Virus record (IMG/VR): IMGVR_UViG_2737471851_000002 | DNA from: a virus | Lineage: Duplodnaviria; Heunggongvirae; Uroviricota; Caudoviricetes | Length of the DNA stretch: 7,556 nt | Direction: 5' to 3' (one strand) | In this document: one piece after another, positions 1-7,556 of the stretch | Layout: every line of letters begins with the position of its first letter | Position numbering within the stretch: position 1 is the stretch's first letter | The notes under the pieces: model-generated | What the model was told of the DNA's origin: nothing | Seen by the model: the letters and a program-made list of their open reading frames with translations, nothing else | The model's database searches: none | Program-made: the position numbers and the translations under genes

Positions 1-29
1 CCTGCATCAAATGTCAGCGCATCCAGCAT
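1..29 (-). CDS. D: Tail protein D, N-terminal fragment only (ATG at 29..27, reads MLDALTFDA...; gene continues past the window start)
   Basis: ATG overlaps the U stop as TAATG (31..27) on the minus strand. Its position directly after U matches the P2 order FI-FII-E-T-U-D. Only about 9 codons are visible, so identity rests mainly on synteny. Confidence 0.5.
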
Positions 30-508
30 TATCCCGCCCCCGTCATACCCGTGAATTTAGTCGCCATACTGCCAGCCTTACCGATGAGCGACTCCGCCTG
101 TTTACCGATATCGCCATAAAGCGCGGCCAGTGATTCATCAACGCGGGTGAGCGACAGCGTAAAATCAATTTTTCGGGGTGTGCCATCTGCAAAGAAAATA
201 CTCCCTGTTTCACTCACCCTGCTGATGACATACATGCCGTAAATCATGCCGGTGCCATCCAGCAACGGCCACGCCCGGCCTTCCTCTGCCATCAGCCTGA
301 GCGTGGTCATCGTCAGCTTCCCGCCGGTCAGTTCGGGATAAAGCACGCCGGCAAGTGTGATGTTTTCCTCGCCAACACCGAGAAACTGAAAGGCATCCCG
401 TTTACCGATACGGGAATTTGACGGCCAGCGATAATCTGATTCACGCTGCATGGTCTGGTGTGGCAGCGTCTGGCGCATAAAAACAAACATACCTAACGCG
501 AGCATCAT
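29..508 (-). CDS. U: Tail protein U (P2 gpU-like, 159 aa)
   Basis: 159-aa ORF directly downstream of the tape measure gene. Length and position match P2 gpU. A strong GGAGG Shine-Dalgarno sits in the 14-nt gap after the T stop (509..522, minus strand). Confidence 0.8.
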   Translation of the reverse strand: MMLALGMFVFMRQTLPHQTMQRESDYRWPSNSRIGKRDAFQFLGVGEENITLAGVLYPELTGGKLTMTTLRLMAEEGRAWPLLDGTGMIYGMYVISRVSETGSIFFADGTPRKIDFTLSLTRVDESLAALYGDIGKQAESLIGKAGSMATKFTGMTGAG

Positions 509-522
509 TTTTCGTCACCTCC

Positions 523-2970
523 TTAACCGTCATGCATCATGCTGGCACGGGCGCGCGCACGTTTATCCCGCTCGTATTTTTCGAGCGCATCCTGTAACTG
601 GCGGTCAAGCTGTGTCCCCGGCGCAGTACCACCCGTCAGGCTGATGTGATATTCGTTTTTACTCTGGTCCACATAAGAGCGGCCAGCCGGTGCCGTAACC
701 GGCTGATAAGCCTGATAGCCTGCATAAGAGCTGGTCGCCGGAATATAACCACCGCTGCCATACGTGGCGGCTTGAGTTCTGGCGGCGGTCTGGTCAAGTG
801 TGTCTGACTCTTTGTTGATAACACCGAGTTTTTCCAGTACCCAGTCAATTCCGCTGCGCAGTTTGTTGAACGCATTAAGCGGCAGCATCAGCGCGTCAGC
901 CAGTGCCTGCCCGAACATGACGCCAGTATCACGGCAACGGTTCAGGGTGTCCTGGGTGGCTTTGACCGGGGCAATCAGGTTTTTAAACCACTGCCACGCG
1001 GCCTGTAACTTTTCGCCCAGCCAGTCAAACACCGGCTTAAGTGGCGTGAACAGTTCCCCCACCGGCGCAAATGCCGCTTTCAGCCCTTCCATCACACCGC
1101 CAAAGAATGCGCTGACAGGCTCCCAGTATTTACGGATAAGCAACGCCCCGGCGACAATGGCGGCCACCACGGCCACAACCGGCCAGCTAATCGCCCCGAT
1201 GGCGGTCATAACAGCACTGCCAACCGTCGTGAAGATTGCCCCCATTGCGCCTGCTGCCGCGATGATGGCATTGATGCCGGTGATAACCGGCCAGGCTACA
1301 AGACCAATGGCACCGATGATGCCAGTAAGCGCCAGCGCGCCACCGGCAATTAGGCCAATGGTTGACGCCAGTGATTTGTTTTTCTGGATCCAGCCGTCGA
1401 GTTTTAACACATACTTTGTGGCCGTCTGCGTGAGCTTACGCAGTGCGCCTTCCTGCTGGTCAAACAGGTCAGTCCCCACCGCTTCATAAGCGGACTGAAA
1501 CTCCTTAAAGTCACCGCCGAGGTTGTCCTGCATGATTTTAACCAGCTCTTCCGTTTTACCGTCTGAGGCTTTCAGTGTGGCGGTCAGCTTATCCAGTTTT
1601 CCGCTTGCAGCCGCTGCCAGTAAAACGTTCGCTGATTTCAGGGCTTCCTCACCAAAAATGGTTTTAAGGTATTCCCCCTTCTGAGACGTTCCCAGCTTGT
1701 GTTTATCAAAGCTGGCCTGAATCTCTTTCAGAATGGTGAACAACGGACGCATATTTCCCTTTTTGTCCGAGGTTTTAACGCCAAGCTCTTTGAGTGCATC
1801 CCATGCTTTTCCAGTCGGTGCCTGTAATCGGGTGACAACGGCACTGCCACCCGTACCCGCCATTGACCCCCTGATGTTATTGTCATGCAGCACACCTGTC
1901 ATGGCCGCTGCCTGTTCAAGACTTACACCTGCCGTCCTCGCAACCGGACCGAGGTAAGTCAGTGCATCACTGAGTCCCTGAAAATCAGCCGCCGACTTAT
2001 TCATCGTTGCCGACAACACGTCGCCCACATGGCTGACATCATCATTTGACAGTTGAAAGGATGCCTTAGTCCCCAGCAACAGTTGCGCGTTTTCTTCCAT
2101 CGACCGCTGATTCGCCAGTGCCATATTCAGCGTGACCGGCGTTGCCGCCTGAATAGCCGCAGCATCTCCACCCGCTTTCGCAATGATAATCTGCGCACCG
2201 GCCGCATCATCCGCTGAGGCGGCGGTATTGTCGCCGAGCTGGCGCGCCTGTTTGCGGAGCGCGGCCATTTCGGCGGAATCTTTTGCCACACCGAGCACGG
2301 CCTGCAATTCTGAGTTTTTCTGCGCAAACTCATAACCGGGCATCAGCAGCTTAACTCCGGCCATCGTTCCCGCCGCCGCAATCCCCACACCGGCAGCGCC
2401 CACTGAGGCCATATTTCCGGCCAGTTCCTTTCCGGCCTGATAACGCTGTTTTACTGCGTTAAGTTTTGCCTGTTGCGCACTGACACGCACCAGCGCATCA
2501 CGCTGACGGTTAAGCTGTGCGGTGGTTTCACTGATACGGTTTTTCAGTCCCTGCTCATCATGTGCAAGATTGCGGGTATTAATTCCCACAGCGGCCAGTT
2601 CCCGCTGCTGGCGTTTAACGGAATCTGTCAGGCGGTTATATTTCGCCTGTAAGTCCTCCGCCGCACGCTTTGCGGATTCCAGGACTTTCGCCTGAGCACG
2701 GGTCGGACGTTCGGTGTTTTTAAACTGTGTGGCAAGGGCTTCGGCCTCCTGCCGTGCCTTTTCAAGTGCATGACCAGTCACGGCGAGCTGTGCACTGGTC
2801 TTGCGGAATCCCTCAATACGGGATGCGTGACCGTTCAGCTCGCGCAGTGATTTTTGTGTTTCCCGGATATCCCCCGACAGCGACTTGCTCGCTGTGCGGA
2901 TGGATTTAAACGGGCGGGATGCCTGGTCAACAGCCCTGAGCAATACCTGTAATTTTACATTGTTACTCAT
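523..2970 (-). CDS. T: Tail tape measure protein (P2 gpT-like, 815 aa)
   Basis: 815-aa ORF, the same length as I recall for P2 gpT. It has an Ala/Gln/Arg/Glu-rich, coiled-coil-like N-terminal region and Gly/Ala-rich hydrophobic stretches (e.g. GNMASVGAAGVGIAAAGTMAGV and IGLIAGGALALTGIIGAIGLVAWPV), both typical of tape measure proteins. It lies immediately downstream of E/E'. Confidence 0.9.
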   Translation of the reverse strand: MSNNVKLQVLLRAVDQASRPFKSIRTASKSLSGDIRETQKSLRELNGHASRIEGFRKTSAQLAVTGHALEKARQEAEALATQFKNTERPTRAQAKVLESAKRAAEDLQAKYNRLTDSVKRQQRELAAVGINTRNLAHDEQGLKNRISETTAQLNRQRDALVRVSAQQAKLNAVKQRYQAGKELAGNMASVGAAGVGIAAAGTMAGVKLLMPGYEFAQKNSELQAVLGVAKDSAEMAALRKQARQLGDNTAASADDAAGAQIIIAKAGGDAAAIQAATPVTLNMALANQRSMEENAQLLLGTKASFQLSNDDVSHVGDVLSATMNKSAADFQGLSDALTYLGPVARTAGVSLEQAAAMTGVLHDNNIRGSMAGTGGSAVVTRLQAPTGKAWDALKELGVKTSDKKGNMRPLFTILKEIQASFDKHKLGTSQKGEYLKTIFGEEALKSANVLLAAAASGKLDKLTATLKASDGKTEELVKIMQDNLGGDFKEFQSAYEAVGTDLFDQQEGALRKLTQTATKYVLKLDGWIQKNKSLASTIGLIAGGALALTGIIGAIGLVAWPVITGINAIIAAAGAMGAIFTTVGSAVMTAIGAISWPVVAVVAAIVAGALLIRKYWEPVSAFFGGVMEGLKAAFAPVGELFTPLKPVFDWLGEKLQAAWQWFKNLIAPVKATQDTLNRCRDTGVMFGQALADALMLPLNAFNKLRSGIDWVLEKLGVINKESDTLDQTAARTQAATYGSGGYIPATSSYAGYQAYQPVTAPAGRSYVDQSKNEYHISLTGGTAPGTQLDRQLQDALEKYERDKRARARASMMHDG

Positions 2971-3390
2971 TCGTGTTTCCGCTTCGCCGGAGCGCCTTTT
3001 CGCGCCATGTGATGAGTTCGGTCAGGCTCATGGGATACAGTTCTGATGGCGGCCAGTGAAATATCACTGCCACATCCGCCATCAGGTCATCGACCGACAG
3101 ATTTTTCGGGAACGTCACTGCACCGAGTTCGGCGACAAAAAACCGACCACCTTACCGGCCAGCGCCACAAGGTCAGGCAGTTCCAGCGCGGCGACTTCCT
3201 GCTCGGTCAGCATCGGTGCCGTCATGCGCGGCAGCACCTTAATCAGTGCATCGACTTCTGAGTTTGCGACCGCAGCCAGACTGACACCGCGCAGCGTCCC
3301 CGCACTGGGTTTCATCAGCGTGACCTGTTCGATAACCTGCTCACCACGCCTGACCGGATTGTCCAGGGTAATCACATTTTCTTTGTTCAT
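2963..3390 (-). CDS. E+E': Tail assembly chaperone E+E', made by a programmed -1 frameshift near the end of E; predicted about 141 aa
   Basis: Hand translation of the -1 frame from the slippery site is open for 57 codons (FFVAELGAVTFPKNLSVDDLMADVAVIFHWPPSELYPMSLTELITWREKALRRSGNTNE) and stops at TAA 2965..2963, overlapping the T start as ATGAGTAA. The predicted length is consistent with the roughly 142-aa P2 E+E' product as I recall it. Confidence 0.7.
3115..3390 (-). CDS. E: Tail assembly chaperone E (P2 gpE-like, 91 aa)
   Basis: 91-aa ORF between the tube and tape measure genes. It ends ...VVGFLSPNSVQ, with a TTTTTTG slippery heptamer just before its stop. Confidence 0.85.
   Translation of the reverse strand: MNKENVITLDNPVRRGEQVIEQVTLMKPSAGTLRGVSLAAVANSEVDALIKVLPRMTAPMLTEQEVAALELPDLVALAGKVVGFLSPNSVQ
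3136..3142 (-). other. Slippery heptamer TTTTTTG (within GGTTTTTTG) for the E to E' -1 frameshift
   Basis: Read directly on the minus strand at the G-F-L codons of E. A T6G site is the frameshift site described for the P2 tail operon. Confidence 0.7.
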
Positions 3391-3418
3391 GGTTTTCTCA
3401 CTTCTGAATCGGGGTTAA

Positions 3419-3439
3419 CCGGTCAGCCAGACTGACCGG
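3419..3439 (-). promoter_or_regulatory. Perfect 8-bp inverted repeat (CCGGTCAG, 5-nt spacer, CTGACCGG) between FII and E; predicted stable RNA hairpin
   Basis: Seen directly, 8 nt after the FII stop and 29 nt before the E start. No U-tract follows on the transcript (the next bases are UUAACCCC), so it is not a canonical intrinsic terminator. Confidence 0.4.
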
Positions 3440-3446
3440 ATGAAAA

Positions 3447-3965
3447 TTACAGGCCGATATTGCGGCGGTGTTGCTCCAGCCGGTCGACGCCATTCACCTT
3501 CTCAATCATGTTGATGGTGTCGATTTCGACCAGTTCCTTACCGTCCATCGTCAGCCGGAAATAGGTGCAGACCACGGAGATTTTCGACTCGGTGTCTTCT
3601 CCCTGTTTCCCCTCGCCGGTGTCGATTTCTTTCTGACGTCCACGCATGACCACCTCGACGGCCACAGTTTCGCCGGTATCGTCGCGCTGGTAAGAGCCTG
3701 CAAAACGAATCGGCACAGCATCCACACCGATTGCGGCGTAAAGCTCCCAGATAACCGAATCCGGGAAGCCCCCGAGCGACCACTCCATTGACAGTGCATC
3801 GTCATCAAGGCCGAGGTCTACCGGTGCGCTGCCGTTCATCCCCGCACCGCGATAGTTTTCGAGCTTACGGGTCAGTTTTGGCAGCGTGACGGACTTTGCA
3901 ACGCCCTGATAGCTGTAGCCGTTCAGAAAGACGTTCATTAACTTGAGTTTGCGCGGCATTGCCAT
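3447..3965 (-). CDS. FII: Tail tube protein (P2 gpFII-like, 172 aa)
   Basis: 172-aa ORF directly downstream of the sheath gene. A GGAG Shine-Dalgarno lies in the 12-nt gap after the FI stop. Length and position match P2 FII. Confidence 0.9.
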   Translation of the reverse strand: MAMPRKLKLMNVFLNGYSYQGVAKSVTLPKLTRKLENYRGAGMNGSAPVDLGLDDDALSMEWSLGGFPDSVIWELYAAIGVDAVPIRFAGSYQRDDTGETVAVEVVMRGRQKEIDTGEGKQGEDTESKISVVCTYFRLTMDGKELVEIDTINMIEKVNGVDRLEQHRRNIGL

Positions 3966-3977
3966 CGGTCAGGCTCC

Positions 3978-5168
3978 TTAATTGCTGTTAACCGAGGTGA
4001 CCAGATTTGCCAGGTATTTATCGGTAATACGCTGGCGCAGGGTCAGGTTTTCGAGAGGAGGCACCGGGGTATAGTCGTAGTCGATATACAGTTTTCCGGC
4101 CTTGAGGGTTTCCGCATCGTTGGATTCTTCGCTGAACCAGCAGGTCGCATCCACGATATAGCCGTTTGTTTTCAGCTCACGGAATTTGGCATTGATGCCG
4201 TCAACGATGTCGCGAATCAGCGTTGCGGTGATGGGCTTGTCCACCGCCCACATGTGCGCCTCAGCCATCGTGTCGGCCAGCACCTGCGCGGTGCGGGTGT
4301 AGTTTTCAAAGAGGAACAGCGGGTCATCGGAGCAGGTACGGTTACCCCAGAAGCGGAAACCGTCGCGGCGAATCAGCGTTGTGACGCCTGACTCGTTAAG
4401 CAGGTCAGCATCGGTGCCGGACTCCTGCAAATCCCAGAATACAGATGCGCTGATGCCGGTAACACCGTTCACCCCGACATTGGACAGCGTTTTATGCCAG
4501 CCCTGCTCCTGGTCGATTTTAGCGCGCAGACCCAGCGCACGGGCGGTGGCATACGCGGTGGCAGTGGTACTGGTGACCGTATCCCATGCGAGGAAATCCG
4601 GCCAGATGACCATCAGCTCACGCTGGCTGAAATTCTGACGGTAGGCTTTCACCTCGGAAATGGTTTTACAGCCCCATGCGCTGATATACCCGAAAGCGCG
4701 CAGCTTCTGACAGACTGATGCCAGTGCAACAGCCACCTCTTTGGTGTCCAGTCCCGGCACGCCGAGAATACGCGGTTTAACACCAGTTACCGACTCCGCC
4801 GCCAGCAGGGCTTTCAGTCCGGTGTACTGACCGTTTTCGTCGGTGGTGCCGATGATATTGGAAACGGTCTGCGCGAGTTTCGTTTCTTCGTCGTCGCCGG
4901 TGCCGTCTTCCACACGCACGACAACGGTGACCGGTTTTGACTGGTCGGCGATGGCCTGCAACGATGCCGCCAGCGTGCCTTTTTTACCGGCCTTTGCAAT
5001 TGCGCTCTGCACATTGGTAATCAGCACAGGTTTATTGAGGGGGAAGGTTTCCGCATCCGCATCGCTGGCCGTGCAAACCATGCCGACAATGGCAGTGGAT
5101 ACAGTGGAAATGACGCGGGTGCCATCGTTAATCTCCAGCACCTGCACGCCATGATGATAGTCACTCAT
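3978..5168 (-). CDS. FI: Contractile tail sheath protein (P2 gpFI-like, 396 aa)
   Basis: 396-aa ORF, the same length as I recall for P2 FI, and first gene of the FI-FII-E-T-U-D block. A GGAG Shine-Dalgarno sits 8 nt upstream of the ATG. Confidence 0.9.
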   Translation of the reverse strand: MSDYHHGVQVLEINDGTRVISTVSTAIVGMVCTASDADAETFPLNKPVLITNVQSAIAKAGKKGTLAASLQAIADQSKPVTVVVRVEDGTGDDEETKLAQTVSNIIGTTDENGQYTGLKALLAAESVTGVKPRILGVPGLDTKEVAVALASVCQKLRAFGYISAWGCKTISEVKAYRQNFSQRELMVIWPDFLAWDTVTSTTATAYATARALGLRAKIDQEQGWHKTLSNVGVNGVTGISASVFWDLQESGTDADLLNESGVTTLIRRDGFRFWGNRTCSDDPLFLFENYTRTAQVLADTMAEAHMWAVDKPITATLIRDIVDGINAKFRELKTNGYIVDATCWFSEESNDAETLKAGKLYIDYDYTPVPPLENLTLRQRITDKYLANLVTSVNSN

Positions 5169-5257
5169 CCGTTTAACTCCGTGGTTAATGGGTGCAACTA
5201 TTTTCTGTTGGGCAGTGCATGAGACGCTATTTGACCTGGCTGGTCAGTGGATGAAAC

Positions 5258-5295
5258 AACAGATAAAGAAAAGGCGGGCAATCAGCTTGCCTGCC
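5258..5295 (-). terminator. Candidate rho-independent terminator on the minus strand
   Basis: Minus-strand RNA reads GGCAGGCAA, loop GCUGAU, UUGCCCGCC (9-bp GC-rich stem with one A-C mismatch), followed directly by UUUUCUUUAUCUGUUGUUU. It lies about 130 nt after the stop of the cargo ORF and about 90 nt before the FI start. Confidence 0.45.
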
Positions 5296-5345
5296 TTGAT
5301 TTGTACTCTCTCTGTTTCCAACTGACAAATTACGTAACCAAAATT

Positions 5346-5361
5346 CTGTCAAATCTGACAG
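5346..5361. promoter_or_regulatory. Inverted repeat CTGTCA-AATC-TGACAG (TGT-N8-ACA core); possible regulator binding site
   Basis: Seen directly in the intergenic region between the cargo ORF and FI. A second imperfect dyad, TGT-N9-ACA, lies at 5313..5327. Neither has the TGT-N12-ACA spacing I recall for Ogr-dependent P2 late promoters. Confidence 0.25.
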
Positions 5362-5428
5362 CCTGTTTTGAGCGAAGAGCGGACCTGAGATTGTGGTATG
5401 CTAATTTATGGGGAGCAGGTCAATTGTA

Positions 5429-6253
5429 TTAGTTATCTTTTTGCTTTTCTTTATCCCATTTCTTTGCAGTGGTCTGATACCACTCTTCACGTGCTCGTTG
5501 TTCCTCGGCTCTGTCACTTGAATTATAGTTGTCTGTTTTAATTTTTTTGCTTCCCTGGGAAATCGGCCTCCAGTCTTCTCTAATCTTTTTCATCTGCTCA
5601 GCTATCTGTGTCATTGGACTCCTTGCACCTAAGTAGCTAACCCCCTCGAAAGAAGCCATATCATAAGAATACTCATTCCGCTCTCTTTCAGTTGAGCCCG
5701 GCTGTTTAGACCAGCTAATACTAACAGAATAAACTTGATCTTTAATCTGGTCATACTTACAAAGACTGCTGTTGAGGGAATGGCCGTTTTTCAATACGCT
5801 AACCTTGCTAAATGGTATACCTTTATTTTTTCTATGTTCTGCATTAACCAGTGGGGGATTAAATCCGACTTCAATATCATAGGCTGGGGCATTTCCGGTA
5901 TTAGCAATATTGATATCAAAATAAAAAGCAGCCCAAGAATTTGGTTCAAGAGTCACAACGACATGAGGTTGAACTGATGCGTCAACCATCCTTTTTGTCT
6001 CGTCTGCTAATAGCCTTGTTACTCTCCACAAGAAAAATGTAGCAACTGCTGTTAGCAATGCTGCCAAAGCGGAGATATCGGCACTTAAATCGCCGTTCGT
6101 CTGCGGGTCACTGCCCGGCATCGGGCAAAGGCTCACTTTCGGGCAGGCGTTGGCGACAATCACTGGCGTCAGTGCAGGCCGGACGCTGGTGCAACCGGCG
6201 CACAGCATCAGGCAGGTCAGCGCCATACCAGCGGCGAAAATCCTCGTTTTCAT
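5429..6253 (-). CDS. lysC: LysC-like o-spanin lipoprotein start (embedded in lysB) whose frame runs on into a lower-GC cargo segment; predicted 274-aa chimeric product
   Basis: ATG at 6253..6251 with a GAGG Shine-Dalgarno 9-12 nt upstream, inside lysB in another frame. The N-terminus MKTRIFAAGMALTCLMLCAGC is a lipoprotein signal with a lipobox-like LCAGC, followed by a Pro/Cys-rich segment, as in Rz1/LysC o-spanins. The frame has no stop until 5429..5431. Downstream come a hydrophobic stretch (ISALAALLTAVATFFLW, about 6026..6076) and about 190 aa of unrecognised sequence ending in a charged tail (KKWDKEKQKDN). The start assigned by the ORF track at 6370 has no ribosome binding site and is probably not used. 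Confidence 0.55.
   Translation of the reverse strand: MKTRIFAAGMALTCLMLCAGCTSVRPALTPVIVANACPKVSLCPMPGSDPQTNGDLSADISALAALLTAVATFFLWRVTRLLADETKRMVDASVQPHVVVTLEPNSWAAFYFDINIANTGNAPAYDIEVGFNPPLVNAEHRKNKGIPFSKVSVLKNGHSLNSSLCKYDQIKDQVYSVSISWSKQPGSTERERNEYSYDMASFEGVSYLGARSPMTQIAEQMKKIREDWRPISQGSKKIKTDNYNSSDRAEEQRAREEWYQTTAKKWDKEKQKDN
5430..5990. other. Lower-GC cargo segment (about 40% GC by hand count, against roughly 55-60% in the flanking phage genes)
   Basis: GC was hand-counted in 60-nt blocks and ranged from 33% to 52%. The coding frame uses codons rare in enterobacterial and phage genes (ATA, AGA, AGG). The segment lies between the lysis cassette and the sheath gene, adjacent to FI where P2 has its Z/fun locus. 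Confidence 0.6.
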
Positions 6254-6533
6254 TAAGTAACCTCGTGATGGTTTTCTCGCGCTGTGCTTCACGTTTCGCG
6301 GCGTTCTCCAGTTCCTGACGCAGTGCCACCTGCGCCAGCTCGTTTTTGCCTGCCCTGGTAAGGGCAACATGAAGCTGGTTTTTCAGCATGGTGATGGTCG
6401 TCTGCTGTTCACTGGCGACGTTGTTCGCCCTGTCCAGCGAGGCGCGCAGGCTGGCATTTTTATGTTTCACCAGAAACAGACCGGCCACCGCCAGTGATAA
6501 CAACACAACCAGCACAGTCATCAGCTTTGACAT
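6108..6533 (-). CDS. lysB: i-spanin LysB (Rz-like, 141 aa)
   Basis: N-terminal transmembrane segment (MSKLMTVLVVLLSLAVAGLFLV) followed by a charged, helical periplasmic domain. A second ORF with a lipoprotein signal is embedded in another frame, the Rz/Rz1 arrangement. GAGG Shine-Dalgarno upstream. The start overlaps the lysA 3' end by 13 nt. Confidence 0.85.
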   Translation of the reverse strand: MSKLMTVLVVLLSLAVAGLFLVKHKNASLRASLDRANNVASEQQTTITMLKNQLHVALTRAGKNELAQVALRQELENAAKREAQREKTITRLLNENEDFRRWYGADLPDAVRRLHQRPACTDASDCRQRLPESEPLPDAGQ

Positions 6534-6946
6534 GGTTCCCGCCCCTCAAAACGCTGACGGCAGGCCGTACGTATCAGCCGGAAAAACAGCGACGCCACAA
6601 GATAAATCAGCGCAGTAAAAATCCACCCGGCAGCGACCAGCGAGATAAACGTCACCACCATCACCACCAGAGCCGCCACCCGTCTGCACCACGGCACCGG
6701 CTGCAAAAACAGCGACGTGACAATCTTCACGGCCAGCGATTCCGGCGGCAGCTCCCGTCCGTAGCGTTCCAGTACATACTCAGTGGCATACACACCGACA
6801 CCACCGGCAACCACACAGATAACCGTCGCCAGAATCGCCCAGGTGGCAACAAAACTGACGGCCACGCTCTGCGGGTAAATCAGGGACAGTGCCAGCATCA
6901 GCGCCAGCAACACGTTCAGCATCAGTGAAAGGGATAATTTCTTCAT
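6521..6946 (-). CDS. lysA: LysA-like membrane protein (lysis timing or antiholin-type accessory, 141 aa)
   Basis: 141-aa ORF with several predicted transmembrane helices, sitting between the endolysin and lysB as in P2. GGAG Shine-Dalgarno 9-12 nt upstream. Confidence 0.75.
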   Translation of the reverse strand: MKKLSLSLMLNVLLALMLALSLIYPQSVAVSFVATWAILATVICVVAGGVGVYATEYVLERYGRELPPESLAVKIVTSLFLQPVPWCRRVAALVVMVVTFISLVAAGWIFTALIYLVASLFFRLIRTACRQRFEGREPCQS

Positions 6947-6960
6947 GGTGTTGACTCCGT

Positions 6961-7458
6961 TTAAGCCGGTACGCCGCCAGCGGTACGCCAGACGGTGACC
7001 AGTTTTTCCAGTGAATGCTCACGCTGACCGTAACCGGCACCCGGCAGGGACGCCCAGATATTGCGACAGCGTGAAATGGCGCGCTCAATGCGTCCCGCCC
7101 GGATGTCATCCAGTGCACCGCGTTCGCGGATCAACTGAATGGCGAGCCTGTCCTGTGACAACGGACTGAAATCCGGCAGGGCAAGCTGTTTGCGGTAATG
7201 CGGCCAGAACAGGTAAAGCTGCTGATAGCGACCGGAGGCCGTTGATTTTTCACCGCGACGGTTAAACACCTTCGCCGGTCGGCCATGCGCGAACGGGTGG
7301 TCACTGTAGTCGGTGAAAATTTCCGGCTTTCCGTCCAGTCCGGTGACTATCACGTCATAGCCCCGGTTTTTCGTCAGCGGATGGTTCACCGTCCCTTCGG
7401 ACACGGCCAGCATGTCGAGAAAGGCGGCGATATTCTGATGCGTGTTAATTACCGGCAT
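6961..7458 (-). CDS. K: Endolysin, lambda-R-like lytic transglycosylase (P2 gpK-like, 165 aa)
   Basis: N-terminal motif FLDMLAVSEGT and C-terminal IWASLPGAGYGQREH closely resemble lambda R (LDMLAWSEGT ... IWASLPGAGYGQFEH) as I recall it. Length and position match P2 K. Confidence 0.9.
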   Translation of the reverse strand: MPVINTHQNIAAFLDMLAVSEGTVNHPLTKNRGYDVIVTGLDGKPEIFTDYSDHPFAHGRPAKVFNRRGEKSTASGRYQQLYLFWPHYRKQLALPDFSPLSQDRLAIQLIRERGALDDIRAGRIERAISRCRNIWASLPGAGYGQREHSLEKLVTVWRTAGGVPA

Positions 7459-7556
7459 TACGGTTTCCCCCTGCCCTTAAAGCGGCGCTGAATGGCAATC
7501 TCAATCACCTGATAACCGGCGATACCCAGCATGGAGCCGATGCCGCACACCGCAGG
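7458..7556 (-). CDS. Y: Holin, C-terminal fragment (the gene starts beyond the window end)
   Basis: Open frame entering from the window end reads ...PAVCGIGSMLGIAGYQVIEIAIQRRFKGRGKP and stops at TAA 7460..7458, overlapping the K start as TAATG. Its position immediately upstream of the endolysin fits the P2 holin. Only 32 codons are visible. Confidence 0.5.
   Translation of the reverse strand, partial: PAVCGIGSMLGIAGYQVIEIAIQRRFKGRGKP

Follow-up and report, generated by a model that had tools for sequence, protein, structure and literature searches.

What has become of the tail genes in a P2-like prophage whose lysis genes run almost directly into the tail sheath operon? In the stretch of DNA analysed in this work, a contig of 7,556 bp to which we refer as the window, the end of lysB (6108) and the start of FI (5168) have just 939 bases between them (5169-6107), in agreement with the distance of about 0.9 kb between the same two positions reported in the initial annotation. 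In P2, R and S serve tail completion, V, W, J and I form the baseplate and spike, and H and G provide the fibre and its assembly; within the 7,556-bp window none of these genes lies between lysC and FI. Two explanations had been proposed, either that about 8 kb of tail genes were lost from an element whose lysis, sheath, tube and tape measure genes look intact, or that the prophage belongs to a lineage with a rearranged late region. We conclude with high confidence that the window represents the late region of an E. coli prophage of P2-like type (Peduovirus, R18C-type) after one recent microhomology deletion of 8,404 bp. What was removed, how the joint was formed, whether it is real and what is left for the cell are discussed below.

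The genes which remain are those of a Peduovirus late region (Table 1). According to the ORF list all real genes are on the minus strand, with the transcription order Y-K-lysA-lysB-lysC ... FI-FII-E-E'-T-U-D, and K, lysA, lysB, lysC, FI, FII, E/E', T and U stand in the order of P2 on this one strand. P2-type phages among the phage records share 97-98% DNA identity with the window over positions 1-5384 (BLAST). The match of lysB to TIGR03495 (cutoff 92.75) covers the profile from end to end, the endolysin K gene is 100% identical at the DNA level in three intact draft prophages (L015-L017), the exact T protein is present in 141 collection blocks, and the exact LysA protein carries the PF28015 LysA tag in 201. 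The window spans a complete contig, so that the further contig sequence in which the initial annotation had wished to look for gpR/S/V/W/J/I/H/G homologues does not exist. Both ends of the window (1 and 7556) lie inside conserved genes, D and Y, and in the alignment to E. coli EC6563 position 7556 corresponds to L013 29958. Just 5' of the stop codon of E, at 3131-3137 on the minus strand, there is a GGTTTTTTG run (TTTTTTG), with E' in the -1 frame; we take the GGTTTTTTG run at this place to be the programmed frameshift site of P2 E/E'. A search of the window against Rfam returned zero RNA families.

Table 1. Features of the 7,556-bp window and the basis of their assignment
Feature	Position	Strand	Basis or remark
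Gene D, first 29 bases	1..29	-	Cut by contig end; aligns to L013 14001-14029, 'phage late control D family protein'
U, tail protein, 159 aa, intact	29..508	-	PF06995 on identical gene
T, tape measure, 815 aa, intact	523..2970	-	TIGR01760, 331 bits
E and E', tail assembly chaperones	2963..3390	-	PF10109 and PF06528 on identical genes
FII, tail tube, 172 aa, intact	3447..3965	-	TIGR01611, 166.5 bits
FI, tail sheath, 396 aa, intact	3978..5168	-	Pfam Phage_sheath_1 and related domains; identical gene in L003-L012
Conserved FI-upstream region, retained	5169..5384	-	97-98% identical in P2, Wphi and others to 5384; 100% in intact relatives
3' untranslated end of the cargo module	5385..5428	-	Homology to P2-type phages with other cargo ends at 5384
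Cargo gene, codons 16-230 and stop; promoter and first 15 codons deleted	5429..6077	-	Continuous ORF; phrog_11802
Joint, 4-bp microhomology GATA (TATC on the coding strand)	6074..6077	.	Arms 1-6077 and 6074-7556 overlap by 4 bases
lysC, Rz1-like o-spanin, codons 1-60; C-terminal 36 codons deleted	6074..6253	-	NF038368 P2_Rz1, 81 bits
lysB, Rz-like i-spanin, 141 aa, intact	6108..6533	-	TIGR03495 phage_LysB, 173.6 bits
lysA, 141 aa, intact	6521..6946	-	NF038378, 120.9 bits
Endolysin K, 165 aa, intact	6961..7458	-	ORF; counterpart in relatives annotated 'glycoside hydrolase family 24 protein'
Holin Y, 3' end	7458..7556	-	Cut by contig end; aligns to 'phage holin family protein' of E. coli EC6563 (L013 29860-30141)

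We asked whether traces of the missing block could be found in the window. When it was searched by tblastn with the R, S, V, W, J, I, H and G proteins of a 100%-identical intact relative and with three small accessory proteins of the same segment, zero matches were obtained, so that the absence of the block noted in the initial annotation is borne out with the relative's own proteins. The sole matches given by proteins of the deleted segment were residues 1-51 of LysC (in its 87-aa call) and residues 12-230 of a 230-aa protein, here called the cargo, whose gene lies next to FI in the relatives.

The intact relatives themselves were found by exact-protein look-up with the tape measure and LysA proteins of the window, which led to draft E. 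coli genomes carrying both. The right arm of the window (6074-7556) is 100% identical in L015, L016 and L017, and so is the left arm as far as these three cover it (approximately 4925-6077). Identity over both arms is 100% in drafts such as AATDLD010000003.1 and 96.4-99.7% in EC6563 (NZ_CP095856.1). Two blocks of AATDLD010000003.1 (GCA_012725145.1), L006 and L016, were merged into one reference, and from this merged contig the window differs by the absence of exactly 8,404 bases and by one mismatch. This only mismatch, at window position 92 in U, is synonymous, and since a single synonymous change in 7.5 kb is the sole other difference from the intact relatives, the deletion must be very recent. 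The initial annotation had proposed an alignment to P2 and related prophages for locating the breakpoints; in our alignments these fall in lysC and in the cargo gene, with a gap of 8,404 bp. In the intact relatives the segment in the gap encodes, in P2 order, proteins with the Pfam domains P2_Phage_GpR, Phage_tail_S, Phage_base_V, GPW_gp25, Baseplate_J, Tail_P2_I, Phage_tail_fib and Caudo_TAP. The order in phage R18C and in EC6563 is lysB, lysC, R, S, an antisense orf, V, W, J, I, H, G, two small antisense orfs (one of them DUF3606), the 230-aa hypothetical gene and FI. What was removed is thus the 3' third of lysC, R, S, the antisense orf of 261 aa, V, W, J, I, H, G, a 92-aa orf, the DUF3606 orf, and the promoter and start of the cargo gene. 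The 261-aa antisense gene (phrog_2407, of unknown function; L016 11931-12716), which in this lineage lies between S and V, marks another accessory-gene position, and it was lost in the deletion. The loss of about 8 kb supposed in the initial annotation therefore stands and is now measured against arms that are 100% identical; what has to be corrected is the picture of an intact lysis cassette, for lysC is truncated.

Could the gene order of the window instead be a lineage-specific arrangement of the late region, with baseplate and fibre genes placed elsewhere in a functional phage? The one argument for this is that the genes are absent from the window. The relatives which are identical on both arms have the canonical order, and the closest ones keep lysC-R-S-V-W-J-I-H-G-(cargo)-FI. 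R18C (94.9%; BLAST, phage records) and many prophages in complete E. coli genomes (up to 99.7%) match positions 1-6077, and a match to the whole window in a single piece was found neither among the phage records nor among the complete E. coli genomes. Related phages sharing the lysC-cargo-FI order, which according to the initial annotation would speak for a lineage of this kind, were looked for; the joint is in none of the phage records and in 0 of the 5,426 complete E. coli genomes, and it occurs on two draft E. coli contigs only. Moreover, the breakpoints cut two open reading frames, lysC and the cargo gene, unlike what would be expected of an evolved arrangement. The data thus refute a rearranged lineage, the probability of which we consider negligible.

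A deletion within the canonical late region being what the data show, we turned to its joint. One breakpoint lies after codon 60 of lysC and the other at codon 15/16 of the 230-aa cargo gene, and the bases GATA are present in both parental sequences at this place; a microhomology of at least 4 bp would be found at a random joint with a chance of 0.016. No IS or recombinase gene and no long repeat was found in the parental segment of L016. A few shared bases in the absence of long repeats, IS elements and recombinases are the signature of an illegitimate, microhomology-mediated deletion, of which we can only infer the enzymatic route. Illegitimate recombination at TATC on the coding strand would have removed the 8,404 bp in one event. 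Site-specific recombination and IS-mediated deletion were also considered and rejected, as the parental segment of the identical relative has neither an invertase nor an IS and the homology at the joint is only 4 bp.

More questions are raised by the rarity of the joint. A 301-bp query spanning it was not covered by any of the 5,426 complete E. coli genomes, and an exact search with its 22 bases found no match in the GTDB representative genomes, IMG/VR or the JGI metagenomes. The two carriers are the 7,556-bp contig analysed here and JUBZ01000089.1 of GCA_000797575.1 (L012), and the isolates from which they come may not be independent. The second contig, of 4,305 bp, corresponds to window 1828-6132 and ends 55-59 bases beyond the joint on the lysC side. 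Could the joint have arisen artificially, through a chimeric read or an erroneous join in a draft assembly of short reads, so that the real prophage is intact? The window is a short contig with both ends within conserved phage genes, the joint is unknown in every large collection that was searched, and the second carrier contig ends only 55 bases past it, all of which would agree with an artefact. However, two contigs of unequal length carry the joint, each with its own GenBank protein record; a 4-bp overlap is too short to bridge a k-mer assembly graph, so that reads must span the joint; and the 7,556-bp contig extends more than 1.4 kb to either side of it with no other anomaly. An artefact therefore seems to us very unlikely.

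The same contig ends bear on another explanation, which accepts the deletion as real. A second P2-like prophage, or a subpopulation of undeleted elements, might carry R, S, V, W, J, I, H and G and could complement the loss in trans. The ends of the window in the highly conserved P2 genes D and Y and the break of the sister contig suggest a repeat, as would result if the source cultures contained another P2-like element or were mixed populations; a break 55-59 bases into the lysC side is what one would expect if lysC continues along another path of the assembly. Nevertheless, contig breaks may have other causes, and the joint is traversed without a branch in the 7,556-bp assembly. We regard complementation as a possibility of rather low probability. 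It is compatible with a recent 8,404-bp deletion as the best explanation for the locus, from which it differs only in its consequence for the cell.

The truncation of lysC and its outcome were both overlooked in the initial annotation. lysC starts at 6253 inside lysB, in a different frame, and its native product has 96 aa when read from MKTRIF and 87 aa in the gene call of L017. A full-length LysC o-spanin is not encoded in the window: 60 of the 96 codons are kept, and the family models match the N-terminal two thirds only (NF038368 over profile positions 2-66 of 85, Pfam LysC, PF23793, over positions 1-50 of 69). The remaining codons of lysC and of the cargo gene agree in frame, for which there was a one-in-three chance, and form a fusion ORF of 274 aa, LysC(1-60)::cargo(16-230), at 6253-5429 on the minus strand, which is part of a continuous ORF at 6370-5429. 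In gene calls it appears as a 'hypothetical protein' of 230 aa that begins at the ATG at 6121 (MPGSDP...), and this product is found under two GenBank protein accessions, KHH12486.1 and KIG44073.1, one for each contig carrying the joint. Exact-protein look-ups of the fusion ORF from three alternative starts gave no match, and the version from the ATG at 6121 is the only one recorded. Could the fusion have acquired a function? Expression from the late O operon might yield a functional, lipoprotein-anchored membrane protein whose retention has been selected for. The LysC signal peptide and lipobox would place the N-terminus of the fusion in the periplasm, and the transmembrane helix of the cargo, followed by R/K-rich residues, would hold its beta-sandwich on the native, probably cytoplasmic, side. 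If this were true, the fusion would amount to an uncharacterised protein of lysogenic conversion or exclusion that has been re-wired for late expression. We think it extremely unlikely.

What is the cargo gene, then, and how did it come to the joint? The initial annotation described the junction as filled by lower-GC cargo. The drop in GC is real, to 0.38-0.42 over approximately 5250-6000 as against 0.55-0.59 in the flanks, and for the cargo gene itself the value is about 0.40 versus 0.57. The gene was not inserted at the joint, however, but was already resident in the G/FI hotspot. In P2 the Z/fun locus, which lies within the tail genes, is a known hotspot for accessory and defence genes (PMC13586616; see also PMC9122126). 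The cargo of the intact relatives occupies the same G-FI position as Z/fun, whereas the copy in the window is truncated and promoterless. An intact 230-aa gene is present in R18C and in the E. coli relatives (L016 19230-19922), where it stands between G and FI together with orf92 and the DUF3606 gene, as an accessory gene (moron) of the Z/fun position would. Other relatives have a different cargo at the G/FI position (L018, L020), and the point at which P2-type phages with other cargo lose homology to the window, 5384, is the edge of the hotspot module.

The cargo protein had no match in Pfam, NCBIfam or PADLOC, and its PHROG, phrog_11802, is labelled 'unknown function'. We also asked if it might belong to an anti-phage defence system, and in PADLOC neither the cargo protein nor its neighbours matched a family. 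For the cargo protein 234 homologues are detectable, some of them labelled 'lysogenic conversion protein from bacteriophage P2-EC53', and the family is well conserved, with invariant motifs such as NTGNA and PPL. The AlphaFold model, which is confident (pLDDT 84), has a long hydrophobic helix at the N-terminus, a beta-sandwich of seven strands, and two charged helices at the C-terminus. Comparison of this model with the PDB gave generic Ig-like beta-sandwich folds only, none at E <= 0.001. Homologues occur in P2-like prophages of many Enterobacterales, and distant ones in an integrase island in Xanthomonas (L023) and in a Mob_Pre/Prim-Pol element in Erythrobacter (L025). Since homologues are thus present in unrelated mobile elements, the cargo behaves as a free-moving single-gene accessory module. 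This uncharacterised family of 230-aa proteins, widespread in mobile elements, seems to us a more promising subject than the deletion itself, which for its part illustrates that the cargo of the Z/fun hotspot can go together with core genes.

What does the deletion mean for the element? With the R-S-V-W-J-I-H-G block gone it would be unable to build a baseplate, fibres or a completed tail, and hence infectious particles, and it would not be expected to serve as a helper for satellite P4. The V operon would have been lost together with its promoter. The FI-FII-E-T-U-D operon, on the other hand, could still be transcribed, since the region upstream of FI (5169-5384) has been left unaltered and its conservation extends to P2-type phages. 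The spanin pair is probably inactive and the spanin step of lysis lost, because LysC is without its C-terminal third and now bears a foreign transmembrane segment. The cargo would no longer be expressed from its own promoter. The initial annotation had also proposed mitomycin C induction; this may be uninformative for the element, since P2 itself is not SOS-inducible and the immunity region lies outside the contig. One might ask if such an element could be a tailocin. R-type tailocins are bacteriocins derived from P2 tails which have kept the baseplate and fibres and lost the head genes. They share with the window the relation to P2, the lysis cassette, sheath, tube and tape measure, but the reading is ruled out because the baseplate and fibre genes are exactly those which are missing.

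We looked in more depth at the region upstream of FI. The late promoter P_F is presumably located here, an assignment made only from the conservation with P2-type phages. The exact TGT-N12-ACA motif, which we take to be the late-promoter dyad, is absent from it, and a version with one mismatch was read by eye at 5258-5241. The region contains two hairpins, at 5346-5361 and at 5271-5297, the latter followed by a T-run on the coding strand. A sigma-70 promoter scan of 5000-6600 found no promoter. A plus-strand ORF of 45 aa (5188-5325) runs antisense to the region, and R18C (L001 14575-14715) has it annotated as 'hypothetical protein'. The terminator-like hairpin overlaps with this ORF, which is unlikely to be a true gene.

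How does the element compare with known ones? The intact E. coli P2-like prophages at ogrK/pflB share with the window the lysis genes, the 230-aa cargo and FI-FII-E-E'-T-U, and keep the 8.4 kb from the 3' end of lysC through the start of the cargo gene which the window is without. R18C (Peduovirus R18C, MN016939) and P2 have the same late gene order as the window, and R18C also has the same cargo 5' of FI; both are complete phage genomes, unlike the window. Defective P2 elements and frequent P2 pseudogenes are already on record (PMC13586616). In the E. coli prophages of E94/E92 and LZHX12 and in the drafts L005, L009 and L011 we found late-region deletions which, like that of the window, spare the sheath, tube and tape measure genes. 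Their breakpoints and extents differ from those of the window, which indicates independent deletion events. In E94/E92 the deletion runs from R to within H. In LZHX12 (L021) it starts in lysC, as in the window, and joins lysC to J, with a fibre lesion in addition. In L005 the portal gene is joined to the C-terminal part of J and U-D are damaged, in L011 the portal gene is joined to a truncated tube gene, and in L009 W and J are not called. The window is accordingly a case of ordinary prophage decay of an already known kind, well resolved, and not a new layout of a phage genome. In annotation it should be entered as a defective prophage of P2-like type, its lysC::hypothetical fusion being treated as a pseudogene, and it should be counted neither as an intact phage nor as a tailocin or a new genome architecture. 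Beyond this practical point it is of little importance. It does show cleanly, at base resolution, how prophage decay begins, with one microhomology deletion unaccompanied by other mutations.

Some further observations concern the relatives. In close relatives at the ogrK-pflB site (L002, L005, L009, L011, L021, L022) the late region has been altered in several different ways, by deletion, frameshift or rearrangement; that of TO73 (L022) is rearranged and has multiple frameshifts. In L019 an IS (DDE_Tnp_1) is located between G and orf92. Lastly, L014-L020 include, at approximately 1-2400, the other P2 hotspot, between the replication region and the portal gene Q, and the cargo in this place differs although the lysis region is identical: it consists of an OLD-like ATPase/TOPRIM protein, of HATPase_c_3 and Methyltransf_35 proteins, or of a D12 methyltransferase.
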